Assembly: GCA_011364965.1 (NCBI GenBank) | Contig: RDOB01000001.1 | Span: 64,001-128,000 of the forward strand | DNA from: Candidatus Heimdallarchaeota archaeon | GTDB lineage: Archaea > Asgardarchaeota > Heimdallarchaeia > Hodarchaeales > Hodarchaeaceae | Reading direction: 5' to 3' | Length of the DNA: 64,000 bases | Shown here: in pieces, positions 7,227 through 63,568 of the stretch | Position numbering within the stretch: position 1 is the stretch's first letter | How the letters are laid out: each line of letters begins with the position of its first letter | Notes under the pieces: generated by a model | What the model saw: only the letters and a program-made list of their open reading frames with translations | What the model was told of the DNA's origin: nothing | The model's database searches: none | Made by a program: the position numbers and the translations under genes

Positions 7227-7574
7227 AATCCTATAAGGTTCAATTTAAACAACTATTAGAACAGGAGATTTTTGATTAGCTGAAAGGGTTCCTAACTTCA
7301 AATAATTACATTATTAAGTAAAAACTCAAATTCATTCAAATAACTCGGATAAATTCTCTATACACGACCAAGGGTAAGATGTAAGTAGAAGTTTATTAAC
7401 GAAACTTCTTAAACCTTGGATTCTTATTGGTTATATAGAAGAGTAATATAATTGTAAGAACCCTGTAATCTAAATTATGGAATCTTAAAGGTAAAAATAA
7501 ATAGAGAGATCAGTACCAATTCATCTCTCACTCTTTAGTTGAACTAAATAATTCGTGTATTGAAGGTTATTTTA

Positions 7575-8177
7575 ATGGCAAATTTAGATGATTTCTTTAG
7601 TGACGATCAGTCCCGAAATGTTGATTCATTGATAGAGGTTACAAAAAAATTCTTTATTTTTGTTTCTCAACTCGCTGAAATTGTAGATGATCTAGAAAGG
7701 AAATATTCACTTTTGAATGGGAGAATCGATGATCTTCTTCAAAAATCGATGTCACCCCCCAGACAACCGCAAATTAACCCTCCAACAGTAAGTACCCCCG
7801 CTCAACCAGTAACAACTCCAACAGCGCCTCCAGCTCCGTCTTCTTTTCCAACTCCGCCTGGATTACCAACACCACCTAGTACAGTTCAACCTGCACCTAT
7901 TCAAGCTACTACACCTCCACCTGCCCCTTCTAACCTTCCTCCATTACCTGGACAGAGTCCCCCATCTAGTCCTTCAATTTTTGGGCAACCTCCACCCCCG
8001 CCAACATTCGGTCAGCAGAACCTACCCTCATCGGGAGGATTAGCTCCTAGTCCAACTGCTGGCCTTGGTCCAAACGCTCCAGCACCTACAGCATCTCCTA
8101 TGAGTTTAAAAGCTCAAATGAACATGGAACTCAAGGAAGCATTTGCTAGAATTCGGAAAGGATGGGATGAGGATTAG
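7575..8177 (+). CDS. Coiled-coil + polyproline protein with C-terminal amphipathic helix and acidic Trp tail (WASP/WAVE-like architecture)
   Basis: N-terminal heptad region, ~115-aa Pro-rich core (PPPPP, LPPLP), ends MELKEAFARIRKGWDED; start ATG 7575 (track gives TTG 7560). Confidence 0.8.
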   Translation: MANLDDFFSDDQSRNVDSLIEVTKKFFIFVSQLAEIVDDLERKYSLLNGRIDDLLQKSMSPPRQPQINPPTVSTPAQPVTTPTAPPAPSSFPTPPGLPTPPSTVQPAPIQATTPPPAPSNLPPLPGQSPPSSPSIFGQPPPPPTFGQQNLPSSGGLAPSPTAGLGPNAPAPTASPMSLKAQMNMELKEAFARIRKGWDED

Positions 8178-8202: not shown

Positions 8203-9144
8203 TTATTTATAAAGCAGATTTCCAAGATCTCTGAGCTTTTGGATGCCCCGAACTTCAAATTCAAATAATGGAATTTCCTTTAGATTAAAGTCAGAATATA
8301 ACTCCTTGATTTTTTTTAAATTCTCCTGATGATTATTAAACCGAGTATGACAGTATGGACACCCTGAACTTTCAGGTTGCACTTGATTAACAAAAATTTG
8401 ATTTATGGGAAATTGAACTTCATATAATGCTCTAATTAAACGCTCTGTCTCCCATATAGCCATGATATTGGGAATAGTAACAGCTATAAACTCTGTTTCA
8501 GTAGGATTAGCTAAATGAACACGCGCAATTTCGACTTGTTCTTTTAACTCTTCGAGTTTGTCAAATGCTTCATCCTCGCTTGGAATGCCAGTACCTCCAA
8601 GGAAAGTTTTCAAACCACTCATCATACCTCCGAGTTTTCTTCTCATTTTTATCATACGAAAGAGCCAACCTTCAGTAATTTCAGGTAGTTGAAGAAGTTT
8701 AAGTGTATGTCCTGTTGGAGCTGTATCAAAAATAACTAATTCAAATTCAGGGTTTTGTATGAATTCCAAAATCTGAATGAAAGCTACAGTCTCATCAGCG
8801 CCTGGTGGTGATAGAGACGTAGGATCAAGTTCTCCTAAGAAGTCAGATAAAGCCCCAGTTGGATCTTGTGTTTTCACAATGTCAGAATAGTTTTTGATAG
8901 CTTCATCTGTGTTTAATTCAATAGCAGATAACTTAGAAACATTGTTAACATGAGTATAACTATCTCCACCTATCTGTTGATCGAGACTATCCGAAACTGA
9001 ATGTGCAGGATCAGTAGATACCAGAAGTGTCTGTATTCCAAGATCTGCAGCGTATATAGCAGTAGCAGTGGCCATAGTAGTTTTTCCAACCCCGCCTTTT
9101 CCACCAAAGAATAAAAAGTGTTTATCAAAAATCAAATTATTCAT
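8203..9144 (-). CDS. GET3/TRC40/ArsA-family ATPase
   Basis: GKGGVGKTT, STDPAHS, DTAPTGH; single ATPase domain, Met-rich insert and CPYC motif. Confidence 0.92.
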   Translation of the reverse strand: MNNLIFDKHFLFFGGKGGVGKTTMATATAIYAADLGIQTLLVSTDPAHSVSDSLDQQIGGDSYTHVNNVSKLSAIELNTDEAIKNYSDIVKTQDPTGALSDFLGELDPTSLSPPGADETVAFIQILEFIQNPEFELVIFDTAPTGHTLKLLQLPEITEGWLFRMIKMRRKLGGMMSGLKTFLGGTGIPSEDEAFDKLEELKEQVEIARVHLANPTETEFIAVTIPNIMAIWETERLIRALYEVQFPINQIFVNQVQPESSGCPYCHTRFNNHQENLKKIKELYSDFNLKEIPLFEFEVRGIQKLRDLGNLLYK

Positions 9145-43802: not shown

Positions 43803-44522
43803 CTAATATCCTGTGATTTCACCAGAGAATTTTCCGACGATAACTCTATCTGCAGGATTACCAAAGATCCCATTTTCGATTACTCCTGGAATCTCATTTA
43901 TCTGTAATTCGAGATTATGAATTTCATTTGGTGATAAATCAGAGGAGAATAATTTTATATCTACGATATATCCAAAATTGTCACTTATCACAGGACCTAA
44001 TTTTTTTGTTCCTTGTCGTAGACTAACCGCTCCGAATTTCTTCAATAACTCAATTGTTCTCCGCCATCCAAAAGGCAGTATTTCTACTGCGACAGGAAAA
44101 TTTCCTAAAGCAGGAACAACCTTGCTTTCATCAACTATCAAGATGAATTGTATAGATGAATTTCTTACCAGTTTTTCTCGAGTTAAAGCTCCACCTCCTC
44201 CTTTTATGGCCTGTTTTTCTGGGTTTACGCTATCAGCTCCATCAATTGTAATGTCTAGATCAAATTGAGGAAGATCAATAATTTGATGACTGGATTTAGC
44301 AAGAGAGTTTTGAAGATGAATTTTAGTATCTAATGAAGTAGGTACGATCTTCAAATTTCTTAATGCACTTTTATTTAGATAGGAAATTAAATATCGTACT
44401 GTAGTTCCGCTACCAACCCCAATATTCATGTTAGAGGATAAAAAATCGAGAGCTGCTTTCGCAGCAGCTTTTTTTGCAGCAGTTACATCCAAATGGGAAA
44501 TGATTATCTCCCTCGTAGACAA
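43803..44522 (-). CDS. rpiA: Ribose-5-phosphate isomerase A
   Basis: GVGSGTT, DGAD, KGGGGALTREK. Confidence 0.96.
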   Translation of the reverse strand: MSTREIIISHLDVTAAKKAAAKAALDFLSSNMNIGVGSGTTVRYLISYLNKSALRNLKIVPTSLDTKIHLQNSLAKSSHQIIDLPQFDLDITIDGADSVNPEKQAIKGGGGALTREKLVRNSSIQFILIVDESKVVPALGNFPVAVEILPFGWRRTIELLKKFGAVSLRQGTKKLGPVISDNFGYIVDIKLFSSDLSPNEIHNLELQINEIPGVIENGIFGNPADRVIVGKFSGEITGY

Positions 44523-44524
44523 GC

Positions 44525-46183
44525 TTACTCTTCTTTGAATATTTCCCTCAATCTACGTAGTTCTTTCAACATTTCACCTCTTAATTCAGCAATGCTTGTA
44601 GATCTTGCATCAGCAATCAAATCCAGAGGTGATTTATCAGGGGCTGGAGGGGCTACAGAAGGGCTAGGTGCTGGGGGAGGTGTAATACTTGGACTAACTG
44701 AGGGAATTGTTGGAGGAGGAGTGGGAATAGCTTTGGGAGGCGGAGTGGGGGGAGTAACAGGTGTTGAAGGAGGGGGTGAGGGAGCTACGGTAGGTTGCAT
44801 AGCAACAGGTGCTTCTTGTGTATCACTTAGAGCTGCAGCAAATAATGATTCGACATCTTTAGATGCAGGAATCGCACTTTTCTTCCGATACCCTTCTAAT
44901 TGAGCTTTAACAGTACGGTGTTGATCTTGATAATATTTTATGAGGGATTCATACACCCTTGGTCTTAGCTTGTCTTTTCTCGCTGCTTCCTTGATATGCT
45001 TTATCATCGCGTCATTAGACCGATTAATTAGTTCTAAGTAGAATACCATTTCACCAGCATTAGCATCAATATCTGGGATGGATGCTCCACTGGGCAATCC
45101 GCCTAAAGAATCACCTGATTCTTGTGTTTCAAAATAAGCAACGGAACATACAAAAACTAATCCAACCATCGTGATTGCCATCCCATATATATACAGAGAA
45201 TCCCAAGGTAATCCAAGATTTAGAAAACTCAAACCTTCAGCAAGTTCAGGGGAATTAGGAAGTACTAAAACAAGAGAAGTTATAACAACTATAATTCCGA
45301 TAATAAAAATAAAAATCCAGAAAATTTGTATCTTCTTTAAGATTCCATAGGAGTTTTCATTACCCCCAAGTAATGCTAAACCTAAAATAAATACGAAACA
45401 GCCAAATAGAAAGACAATTTGCCAATCTATCCCCAGTGAATCCGAAGGTATTATTCCTAGGTATAACATTAGCGAAAGGAAAAATAGAATGAAACCAACA
45501 AGAGCTACTATTATCCAGAGTATCTTTAATTTGGAAAGAAGGTTTTGATAATTATAGCTTGAAGTAACAAATAAAGGTAAGATACCAATGAAGAGTATAA
45601 CGCCACCAATGATTCCAAAGAGTAACCAATCGAAACCGAGATCAATAATCTCAAGTGCGATAAAGGAACTTGCTAAAATCAAAAATATACCGATTAAAGT
45701 CAATACCATGAAAATTATTTTGAAATCCCACACTCTTTCCTTATCTTGAATACTAAATACGATTGGAGAAAACCCAAATATTATCAGAAAGGTTGAAATT
45801 ATCAAATAGTCAAACCAAGAATGTAGAGGGTCTAAAGGTGCCATACTTCCTGTATAAACCAAAAATGAGTAAATGAGGATCAGAATTCCTAAAGACACAA
45901 GTAAAATTAAATGAAAGTAGATTTTTTTAACTCCTTTTTTTGTTGGAGGATCAAAAACGGCAAAAACTGGGAAAAAACCAATTACCATTAGGAAGAAGCT
46001 AAATGCAAGCACAATACGATAGTTAAAACCTAGAAATAGCCGATCCCAAGTAACAGGAACTCTTAAATAATATACATATGAGGCTAATCCACTGAAGAAT
46101 AAAATCCCAATAATAAAGAGCAATATACCAAGACCAGAGAGAGTCAAAAGAATCCTTGATGATTTTACAACCGTATTTCTCAA
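44525..46183 (-). CDS. Multi-pass membrane protein with repeated TM hairpins and a polyproline + WH2-like C-terminal tail
   Basis: ~10 TM helices in ~5 repeats with recurring W at the second helix; then helical domain, PPPP/PTPPP tracts and IADARSTSIAELRGEMLKELRRL. Confidence 0.8.
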   Translation of the reverse strand: MRNTVVKSSRILLTLSGLGILLFIIGILFFSGLASYVYYLRVPVTWDRLFLGFNYRIVLAFSFFLMVIGFFPVFAVFDPPTKKGVKKIYFHLILLVSLGILILIYSFLVYTGSMAPLDPLHSWFDYLIISTFLIIFGFSPIVFSIQDKERVWDFKIIFMVLTLIGIFLILASSFIALEIIDLGFDWLLFGIIGGVILFIGILPLFVTSSYNYQNLLSKLKILWIIVALVGFILFFLSLMLYLGIIPSDSLGIDWQIVFLFGCFVFILGLALLGGNENSYGILKKIQIFWIFIFIIGIIVVITSLVLVLPNSPELAEGLSFLNLGLPWDSLYIYGMAITMVGLVFVCSVAYFETQESGDSLGGLPSGASIPDIDANAGEMVFYLELINRSNDAMIKHIKEAARKDKLRPRVYESLIKYYQDQHRTVKAQLEGYRKKSAIPASKDVESLFAAALSDTQEAPVAMQPTVAPSPPPSTPVTPPTPPPKAIPTPPPTIPSVSPSITPPPAPSPSVAPPAPDKSPLDLIADARSTSIAELRGEMLKELRRLREIFKEE

Positions 46184-46718
46184 TTCAAGCGTTCTCCTAA
46201 GAGATTATGGTTGAATAACCGTCCACGAGGTTATTTGCGTGATTTACATTTATTTTGTTATTATTAACGTGTATTTCAACCGTTTTATATTACTATGATA
46301 ATTTCGAACGAATCCTTTTAAAATCTAGTGGAATCTAAGAAATATCCCATCCATTCTTTTTATACTCCAATTCCATGTTTTAGGCGTTTATTAAGAAGAA
46401 AGAGTGTTTTTTCACTAAAAGTACTTAAGGAATTTATTATTACTCTCATAAAAGGTGAAATCATTCAAATTTTCCCTCTAAAAAGAAAATTGACCTGAAA
46501 TTGAATATTATTACTTGAACCTATGTGTTATATTGCAAACACCATATAAGAGTGTAATTGGACTTAAATAACTACAAATGAATAATTTAAAGCAACAAAT
46601 AGTTCTATTGGTTTTCTTTTTGATAATTAAATAGTCAATTTGACTAAGAAAAAATAAAAAATAAAATGATAAGAGGAAATTGCAAGTTGAATCTAGTCTA
46701 AAATATATTTGAATATTT

Positions 46719-61384: not shown

Positions 61385-63568
61385 TTACTTCCGAGTAATA
61401 TACTGCCCTATTGCTAAATTGAGATCAATTTCTTCAATCACTGGTTTTTTCTTTTCAATGTAAGCTCTCTCTTCCTCTTTACTTAAATTCTTTAGAGGAT
61501 TTTTGTTTTCAGCGAGAAAACGGTTGATAGAGATAAAGATCGCACGGGAAACAATCCCTTTGAGATCTGCTCCAGTTAAACCATCAGTTCTTTTCGATAA
61601 GTCCATAAGGGATACTTTGGGTGAAAGAGGTTTTGATTTTGTTAATACTTGAAATATTTCTAATCGTGATTTTTCATCTGGTAATGGAAGATCGATCACT
61701 CGTTCAAATCGACCAGGTCTCATTAAAGCAGGATCAATAATATCTGGACGATTTGTGGCAGCAATGACTATAACATCATTTAATTCCTCAAGTCCATCCA
61801 TCTCAGTTAGTAGTGTTGTCACAATACGATCACTCAAATTAACATCTGAGCTTTTCGAGCCTCTAGAGGGAACTATGGCATCAATTTCATCAAAAAATAT
61901 AATACTAGGTGCAGCAAGTCGAGCTTTTCTGAAGGTTTCTTGAATTGCCTTTTCACTTTCACCAGCCCATTTAGAAAGTATTTCGGAACATTTTAATGTT
62001 ATAAAATTACGAGATGATTCATTTGCAACAGCCCTCACCATTAATGTTTTTCCTGTTCCAGGTTTTCCAGTTAAAAGGAGACCTCTTGGTATTTGACTCC
62101 CCATATATGAGAAAAGATGGGGATGCATACTTGGTAACTCGATAATTTCTTTCAATTCATCTTTTATTTTGTTTAAACCTCCCACTTGATCCCAAGTGAC
62201 AGTGGGGATCTCAACAAAGACCTCTCTTAGCGCGCTTGGCTTCATTTCTGCTAATGCGGCTTCAAAATCTGCTTGTTGCACAGTAATTTGATTTATAATT
62301 TCCATGGGTATTTCTTCTCCCCAAACGATCTTCGGAAATACTCGTCGAATAGCGCGCATTGCAGCTTCTTTCGTAAGTGAAGCTAGATCTGCTCCAACGA
62401 ATCCATGAGTTCTTCTTGCTATTGCTTCTAAATCAACATCTTTTCCTAAGGGCATCGACCTTGTGTGGATAGTCAGAATTATAAGACGTCCATTTTGATC
62501 AGGAACTCCTATCTCGATCTCTCGATCAAATCGACCTGGACGTCTTAACGCAGGATCAATAGCATTTGCACGGTTCGTTGCACCAATGACAATAATTTCG
62601 CCACGACTTTCCAATCCATCCATTAAAGCTAGCATTTGAGAAACAATTCTTCGCTCTACCTCTCCAGCGCCTTTATCATCTCGTTTCGGTGTAATACTAT
62701 CTATCTCGTCAAGAAAGATTATACTAGGTGATTTTTCGCGAGCTTCGTCAAAATAGGCCCGAATTTTCTGTTCACTTTCACCATAGAATTTGGACATTAC
62801 TTCTGGTCCAGAAACATGAATGAAGTGAGAATCTGTCTCATTAGCCACTGCTTTTGCCAGTAAAGTCTTTCCAGTTCCTGGAGGGCCATACAACAGGACA
62901 CCTTTTGGCGGTTCTACCCCGAGTCTTTCGAATAGCTCAGGATACCTCATGGGTAATTCCACCATTTCCCTTATTCGTTGAATTGTTTCATCCATCCCTC
63001 CAATATCTTCATATGCTATTTTTGGTATAACTTTGTATTCAGTAATTAGATCAGAAGCCTCAAAGTCTGAGGTAGTGGTTTCTATGATTGTTTCTTTATT
63101 TACTATTGCAGATTTGATGGGAGGAGTCAAACCAATTACTTTATATTCGAATCGATTACCCATATATTCTACAGCTATTTTATCATCAATAGACACTGGT
63201 CTACCTTGAAATTTTTGATATAAGAACGATTCTATGTTTGAAATACGAATATTATTTTTTGGAGAGACCAGAATCACTTTTTGAGCAAAATTTGATACTG
63301 CTTTCTTGATGTATACAATTTCATCTAAACGAACTCCGGCGTTAGTTCGGATTGTTGTATCAATAGCAATTGTTGAAAGATCCGCGTCAGTAAAGGAAGC
63401 CCAAACAATAGCGGTTGTTTTTTTATTTCCAGGGCCTTTAATTTCGATAACATCACCTTCAATCAAACCAAGCTCTTTTATATTAATTTTTGAAATTCGA
63501 GCTCGTCCTTTTCCTACATCCTGATAATGCGCTTCCTTTACTTTTAACTGAAGTCCTGATTTAGACAT
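61385..63568 (-). CDS. cdc48: Cdc48/VCP AAA+ ATPase
   Basis: N-domain plus two AAA modules GPPGTGKT and [13 protein letters not shown]. Confidence 0.97.

Follow-up and report, generated by a model that had tools for sequence, protein, structure and literature searches.

A ten-helix membrane protein of an Asgard archaeon that ends in a proline-rich arm and a near-invariant helix: a probable tether for a cytoplasmic partner

The stretch of DNA considered here, which we call the window, comprises 64,000 nucleotides of a Candidatus Heimdallarchaeota genome of the family Hodarchaeaceae (assembly GCA_011364965.1, contig RDOB01000001.1, positions 64,001 to 128,000), and on its minus strand lies a gene (44525-46183) for a 552-residue protein in which a ten-helix membrane domain is followed by a short helical region, a proline-rich arm, and a C-terminal helix whose sequence hardly varies. 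The protein is real, is under strong constraint, and belongs to no described family. It is very probably a membrane tether that presents its terminal helix for docking. The MIT domain of Vps4 is the leading candidate for the partner, a tentative assignment that draws on sequence resemblance to the MIM1-type tails of ESCRT-III proteins of the Vps2/24/46 class, which Vps4 MIT reads and whose Asgard forms have been described (PMC7240154). The combined explanation, a tether with a docking helix for which Vps4 MIT leads, is the best that we can offer and is put forward with some reserve.

According to this explanation, the ten-helix anchor would fix the protein in the membrane with a short helical hairpin at the membrane face, and a disordered proline-rich arm of ~65 residues would hold the amphipathic terminal helix out in the cytoplasm, where a conserved partner could dock on it. 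With Vps4 as the partner, such a tether would gather Vps4 at the membrane, serve as one of its clients, or vie with ESCRT-III tails, and would do so without relying on an ESCRT-III core. Anatomy, topology, selection, distribution, and the motif resemblance are observed, whereas binding of any sort by the tail helix is inferred; a partner outside the candidates considered below is unlikely.

The C-terminal tail is constrained at the protein level

The last 35 residues of the protein, SPLDLIADARSTSIAELRGEMLKELRRLREIFKEE (44528-44632, minus strand), are identical in seven close database homologues that share 39-62% identity over their whole length. Across 40 diverse members of the family an invariant block persists, STSI[AS]ELRGEMLKEL[RS]RLR[ED]IFKE[ED]. 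When the gene was set against those of three relatives, 16-23 of 36 tail codons were found to differ synonymously and none non-synonymously, and because synonymous changes are abundant while non-synonymous ones are absent, the constraint acts on the protein and not on the DNA. The tail is identical at 35 of 35 positions where the whole protein is only 47-50% identical; in those genome pairs, identity is ~90% for ribosomal protein S11, 85-88% for S13, 65% for a PIN-ATPase, 57% for the product of rpiA (ribose-5-phosphate isomerase A), and 43-48% for the membrane domain. The tail is thus more constrained than the ribosomal proteins, and it is under purifying selection at the protein level.

Within the tail, the stretch STSIAE reads from its sequence as an S-x-x-E helix cap. 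The only match among Protein Data Bank (PDB) chains in the tail searches was the designed helical repeat protein dTor_3x33L, where a helix-cap-helix likewise carries an S-x-x-E-type pattern. The Pfam OAR motif also aligned to DARSTSIAELR (residues 525-535, window 44579-44611) in 25 of the 40 members, below threshold at 11-14 bits against a cut-off of 20.1, and this is probably a chance resemblance to the ...SSIAALR... of animal paired-like homeodomain proteins.

A helix of this composition might mainly associate with itself, as a coiled coil or a VASP-tetramer-like bundle, and thereby cluster tethers or pair them with soluble proteins that bear related helices. The residues I531, L534, M538, L542, L545, and I548/F549 are spaced by three or four over ~20 residues, longer than a MIM1, and every face of the helix is conserved, as expected for a helix with several buried surfaces; moreover, several families in one genome bear related helices. 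Simple coiled coils, however, usually tolerate substitutions, whereas no change is seen in 35 residues here against 10-15% in ribosomal proteins, and the hairpin upstream already offers an assembly element. Self-association as the principal role of the helix seems to us improbable.

Membrane domain and cytoplasmic architecture

Residues 1-352 (45128-46183, minus strand) form the membrane domain. Hydropathy delineates ten hydrophobic membrane segments with both termini inside, and the count of lysine plus arginine is 14 in the predicted inside loops against 2 in the outside loops, so that the N-terminus and the C-terminal region of ~200 residues are best placed in the cytoplasm. An AlphaFold2 model built on 40 homologues (mean predicted local distance difference test score, pLDDT, 81.5) returned each of the ten transmembrane helices at pLDDT >90. 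These helices constitute five two-helix hairpin repeats that can be aligned with one another, with glycine positions in common and, in all but one of them, an LG[FIL][DP]W turn. A first-pass annotation of the window, made from its sequence alone, had proposed a multi-pass anchor of about ten transmembrane helices in about five hairpin repeats, a helical segment, a proline-rich arm, and an amphipathic terminal helix; the architecture is as it claimed, and the tail falls on the cytoplasmic side that its proposal of a cytoskeletal role presupposed.

The cytoplasmic part begins with a helical hairpin and a third helix (residues 372-452; 44828-45070, minus strand), delimited from the model and from invariant alignment columns. 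The hairpin helices span residues 376-402 and 408-437 and the third helix residues 440-452, and the region carries the conserved motifs KEAxRxDKxRPRVYESLxKxY and LFxxAL. The arm that follows (residues 453-517; 44633-44827, minus strand) is predicted to be disordered, with pLDDT 41-58, and it leads into one continuous terminal helix at residues 519-551, with pLDDT 80-86. All of the proline-rich strings reported in the first-pass annotation (PSPPPS, PPTPPP, PTPPP, and TPPPAP) are present, as is the C-terminus IADARSTSIAELRGEMLKELRRLREIFKEE (44528-44617). The tract itself, announced as ~55 residues long, is indeed proline-rich, with 42% proline over 64 residues, but its longest proline run is only three (PPP). 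Among the 26 family members in which the boundaries could be set, the arm measures 59-82 residues with 34-49% proline.

Searches for known relatives of these parts were largely negative. Pfam and NCBIfam yielded no family for the 552-residue protein or its parts, and the literature searched does not describe the tether. No fold match to the ten-helix domain emerged from Foldseek against the PDB (best E 0.21) or from a structure search of the ESM Atlas (TM score by query ≤0.24). A protein-language-model search of the Atlas with residues 365-552 gave no usable match, and a wide VIA-align search matched only the hairpin at 372-440, to generic helical hairpins at Z ~9. The hairpin likenesses that this last search suggested, to the ESCRT-I headpiece, the cytoplasmic domain of Prometheoarchaeum OST1, CdvA, and CHMP4B, lie below the level that is meaningful for helical proteins and were discarded.

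A widespread, probable tether with a lineage-specific anchor

The tail occurs at 84-97% identity, on open reading frames of 556-628 residues, in every one of the 22 genomes of the window's genus, a count that takes in the window's own genome; a tandem second copy is present in five of them. This close form of the tail is absent from all 60 other genomes that were drawn evenly across the phylum from GTDB species representatives. The ten-helix domain is similarly confined: a profile search found it in 23 of 400 Asgard genomes, 22 of the window's genus and one of a sister family, and the profile matched only 39 proteins among 1.84 billion representatives. Some of the matches are proteins of 370-400 residues that have the ten helices without arm or tail. 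Free-standing ten-helix paralogues of this type, 381-399 residues long, occur at other loci in seven genomes of the same genus. Proteins of the ten-helix family bear the submitter labels Thor-, Odin-, Hermod-, Loki-, and Heimdall-archaeota in the protein database. A pan-Asgard ten-helix family, as these source labels would imply, is not borne out by the GTDB-based searches that confine the domain to the genus and the sister family, and for the same reason the labels of these metagenome-assembled genomes look unreliable.

Through its C-terminal part only, the whole-protein profile matches proteins of 200-350 residues in 25 of the 60 other genomes of the phylum, and 20 neighborhoods of such short tail-bearing proteins were examined. 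At 11 loci in diverse Asgard genomes the protein has 268-349 residues, with one to three transmembrane helices, a helical segment, a proline-rich arm, and a related tail; at one of the 11, the reading of the tail has been lost through a break in the gene. These genes sit 37-166 nt from rpiA, which is followed by a PIN/ATPase/KH gene and the tRNA-intron endonuclease gene (EndA). Because the same rpiA / PIN-ATPase / EndA synteny is found at the window locus and at four close homologue loci, we regard the short proteins as positional orthologues of the ten-helix protein. Two of them show a SHOCT domain (PF09851) match on the juxtamembrane helix that stays below threshold (E 0.06-0.29, 11-13 bits against a cut-off of 27), and the 552-residue protein shows none. 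A second subfamily is soluble, ~200 residues long, and lies beside a small open reading frame of 90-130 residues in eight loci. The small reading frame belongs to no Pfam family and, as the constant neighbor of the soluble subfamily, is a candidate partner or co-factor.

Short positional orthologues are widespread and the ten-helix form is confined; therefore, the ancestral gene was a small membrane tether, widespread in Asgard archaea, and the ten-helix anchor is a lineage-specific elaboration of it, which arose either by repeated hairpin duplication or by fusion with a free-standing ten-helix paralogue.

The related tails, whose superfamily consensus is [ST]x[IV][AG]xL[RK]xEM[LM]xE[LI]x[RK][LI][KR]x followed by two hydrophobic residues, terminate proteins with one to three transmembrane helices or with none. 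The window's own genome encodes one of the latter, a soluble 238-residue protein with the related tail RATGIAILRKQMLTELKKIR (contig C11, 389860-390636, plus strand). Arm and helix together are thus a portable module, carried on a ten-helix anchor, on an anchor of one to three helices, or on soluble heads. Since the module is portable, and since the ten-helix domain also occurs without it, the anchor appears only to position the protein, and the function would reside in the cytoplasmic module. The soluble C11 protein is itself built of a helical head, a proline-rich arm, and the tail RATGIAILRKQMLTELKKIRTVVSEDQQ, which the tail hidden Markov model detects at E 0.018; its gene, at 11 kb from that of actin, adjoins an open reading frame resembling a family-B DNA polymerase.

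Resemblance of the tail to ESCRT-IIIB C-termini

The most specific lead to a partner is the MIM1-like character of the tail. On contig C16 of the window's genome, two ESCRT-III (Snf7) genes and Vps4 follow one another, and the single MIT domain of the genome is that of Vps4 (C16:88840-89094). The ESCRT-IIIB protein of this genome ends ...PSPDIRSQELQKELEKIKKG. From 20 distinct Asgard ESCRT-IIIB C-termini of the Vps2/24/46 class, gathered across the phylum, we derived the consensus [ED][LI]x[KE]E[LI]x[KR]L[KR], which has Glu where the eukaryotic MIM1 has Arg. The core of the tether's tail, EMLKELRRLR (residues 537-546; 44546-44575, minus strand), comes close to this Glu-centered consensus, as does the core consensus of the tail superfamily, E-M-[LM]-x-E-[LI]-x-[RK]-[LI]-[KR]. 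For example, the ESCRT-IIIB tail IAELEKELNRLK can be paired with a superfamily tail so that AELEKELNRLK stands beside NEMLKELKRLR. The tether's tail fits the ESCRT-IIIB-derived pattern everywhere but at the first hydrophobic position, where it has Met for Leu/Ile. The two also have in common the order acidic-hydrophobic-x-x-E-L-x-basic-L-basic, and both end in an amphipathic helix preceded by a flexible, proline-containing linker, a transition seen in the tether as the step in pLDDT from 41-58 in the arm to 80-86 in the helix. The tail does not fit the eukaryotic consensus (D/E)xxLxxRLxxL(K/R), which is cited in PMC7240154: it reads MxxELxxLR, where Glu takes the place of the central Arg and Met that of the first Leu.

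Alignment of the two sets with hhalign placed GEMLKELRRLRE on QELQKELEKIKK in the same register (P 2.8e-4, probability 41%). A relaxed form of the motif, with Met allowed, occurs seven times in the 958,000 residues of the genome's open reading frames. Four of the seven occurrences, including those of ESCRT-IIIB and the tether, fall in the last 30 residues of a protein, where shuffled sequences give 0.1; this statistic is partly post hoc, because the strict ESCRT-derived pattern misses the tail and the Met relaxation was chosen after the tail had been seen. Within the genus, both MIT helices 2-3 and the ESCRT-IIIB tail GLP[ST]PDIRSQELQKELEKIKK are near invariant (in the tail, 2 of 21 show a single S/T change), so that an invariant MIT ligand is plausible there. 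Across the Asgard archaea MIT residue R65 is invariant and K67 nearly so, and these basic residues would be consistent with the acidic positions of such a ligand. A complex prediction for the tail with the Vps4 MIT domain of the same genome gave ipSAE values of 0.06 and 0.09, where the mark is 0.32; run without controls and short of an answer, it carries no weight either way.

Several observations weigh against Vps4 MIT as the partner. The comparison of motifs covers few residues and is in part post hoc, with a strict pattern that misses the tail and an hhalign probability of only 41%. Pfam searches of the protein and of the 40 family members find no Snf7/ESCRT-III core, the two Snf7 genes of the genome being those on C16, and the gene shows no linkage to ESCRT genes in the window's genome or in the sampled genomes. 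In place of that core, the tether's helix sits on a polytopic membrane protein. The conserved helix is also about twice as long as a MIM1, with the N-cap STSIAE upstream and the two hydrophobics IF after RLR, flanks that ESCRT-III tails do not have. Binding to MIT as a plain MIM1 would leave the invariant STSIAELR and IF unexplained, which implies a longer interface or a second function. Finally, MIT domains are only 29-46% identical across the phylum, compared with 73-84% for actin. We set this last argument aside, given that MIT and the ESCRT-IIIB tail are near invariant within the genus.

Actin as a possible alternative partner

The first-pass annotation had read the tail as WH2-like, preceded by polyproline as in eukaryotic nucleation-promoting factors, and the protein as a candidate membrane-embedded actin regulator. 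As stated, this reading is not supported. The Pfam WH2 family (PF02205) gave no match at E<=10 on the whole protein, on its C-terminal 193 residues, or on the last 53 residues; a scan of the whole genome at the same threshold did not match the gene; and of the 33 families that the 40 members matched at E<=1, the 25 that were listed do not include WH2. Nor did PDB chains searched with phmmer and a tail profile yield any WH2-bearing, CHMP, or VASP chain. The equivalent of the WH2 LKK[TV] motif is L-[KNTA]-E-[LI], with a Glu at the second Lys position that is invariant in the 40 family members and 14 superfamily tails. The terminal helix is predicted to be continuous, and Gly536, a possible helix breaker, is not conserved in the tail superfamily. 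The annotation had also suggested that conservation of DARS...LRRL be surveyed in orthologs, and here the result is divided: the LRRL part is kept, but IxDARS varies, with VVGTARS, VVGSARS, or KAADTQS standing in for IADARS in distant family members.

What the tether shares with WH2 proteins that have an upstream proline-rich region (WASP/WAVE/WIP) is a layout, a proline-rich segment and then a conserved helix near the C-terminus, together with a lineage that has actin. It differs from them in the lack of a profile match, the invariant Glu, the unbroken helix, and the shortness of its proline runs. We know of no WH2 protein with a membrane-embedded anchor of this kind.

A link from membrane to actin does not depend on WH2 membership, and the protein might still be an actin tether or regulator in which the arm is a spacer or a weak profilin site. 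The annotation was right that the host has actin: the genome encodes a true actin, at 442 bits to Pfam Actin, and at 73-84% identity across the phylum this is a conserved partner suited to an invariant ligand. The actin gene and the gene of the soluble paralogue, with its related tail, are 11 kb apart. Weak binding to polyproline has been described for some Asgard profilins (PMC8410842). The Pfam Profilin family had no match in the genome, but it had none in control genomes either, which makes the result uninformative. Against an actin tether stand the lack of WH2 similarity in profile or PDB searches, the Glu where WH2 has Lys, the continuity of the modeled helix, and the absence of close linkage between actin genes and the gene or its positional orthologues; in addition, the longest proline run is three, and profilin-polyproline affinities were measured at 0.3-3.3 mM (PMC8410842).

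Actin folds are known to be bound by terminal helices on flexible arms: the C-terminal peptides of arcadin-2 of Pyrobaculum and of ParR bind a hydrophobic groove of crenactin and ParM, respectively (PDB 5LY3, PMC5173319). The tether follows the same plan, in which a flexible segment joins a head, globular or for assembly, to a C-terminal helix for a conserved partner; in their case this partner is filament-forming, and in the tether's case it is a candidate only. The arcadin-2 contact needs a Trp (PMC5173319), and the tether's tail has none. There is also no sequence similarity between them, and the lineage is a different archaeal one. All in all, we judge an actin-directed role to be rather unlikely.

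Two further systems have a comparable plan. CdvA of Crenarchaeota binds membranes and recruits the ESCRT-III homologue CdvB through a C-terminal E3B peptide, and ZipA of bacteria has a transmembrane anchor, a P/Q-rich arm, and an FtsZ-binding end. Membrane attachment, a long flexible region, and a terminal element that recruits a cytoplasmic remodeling or cytoskeletal machine are common to these proteins and to the architecture proposed here, while sequences and folds are unrelated. The CdvA coiled-coil family matched only 1 of the 40 family members, below threshold (E 0.11).

Genomic position and other conserved machines

The helix might instead dock on another conserved machine, such as the N domain of Cdc48, the ribosome, or a translation factor. 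The eukaryotic membrane proteins gp78, Hrd1, and RHBDL4 dock on the Cdc48 N domain through their VIM/VBM tails. The window's genome has three Cdc48 paralogues, the Arg-rich ELRRLREIF of the tail loosely resembles VBM motifs, and the gene and its positional orthologues are fixed between the S13-S4-S11 and L3-L4-L23-L2 operons, where they are always found. Yet inertia alone could explain a position among housekeeping genes, the orientation relative to rpiA varies, and the VIM signature, a pair of Ala residues, is absent from the sequence. A partner of this type thus has little probability in our estimation. The Cdc48-type AAA ATPases lie at 63299-63550 of the window (minus strand; the gene starts at the very end of the window) and at C13:154328 and C12:19268.

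Implications

Actin, ESCRT-III/Vps4, and elaborate membranes all occur in Asgard archaea, and to our knowledge the attachment of these machines to the membrane has hardly been described. The locus described here is a tether conserved in position across the phylum, and its business end is a helix of 25-35 residues under stronger constraint than the neighboring ribosomal proteins. Were the helix a MIM1-type ligand, we would know of no earlier prediction in archaea of a protein other than ESCRT-III that engages Vps4, and the use of MIT-MIM pairing as a general code for recruitment would seem to predate eukaryotes; were it to bind actin, the tether would link membrane and actin. In either case, recombinant partners would allow a direct test of the peptide, which is short and defined. 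More broadly, it may be that pan-Asgard proteins composed of anchor, proline arm, and end helix link the membrane to a eukaryote-like machine. In its boldest form, with a helix that binds lokiactin in a design unknown in eukaryotes, this proposal is a long shot. The alternative bold reading, a non-ESCRT-III client or recruiter of Vps4, is the one contained in our best explanation and has the standing given to it above.

The gene and its neighbors

The coding sequence of 552 residues runs from a TTG start to a TAA stop (44525-44527). Database entries give a 540-residue form. We prefer the TTG start of the longer form because the first 15 residues are conserved among homologues and because an AGGAG motif, apparently a Shine-Dalgarno-like element, lies 10 nt 5' of it (46194-46198, minus strand). 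On the 3' side lies rpiA (43803-44522, minus strand), identified by Pfam in the syntenic loci, whose TTG start is 2 nt beyond the TAA stop of the membrane gene (window 44522-44527, minus strand); with only 2 nt between them, the two genes are likely co-transcribed. In other Asgard genomes rpiA is again adjacent to the tether gene and is sometimes convergent with it.

Elsewhere in the window, a 205-residue protein (7560-8177, plus strand) has an N-terminal helix, a proline-rich region of ~120 residues, and a different, conserved-looking end helix, MSLKAQMNMELKEAFARIRKGWDED. Its gene is convergent with that of an ArsA/Get3-like P-loop ATPase (8203-9144, minus strand), and it looks like another family composed of a head, a proline arm, and an end helix.

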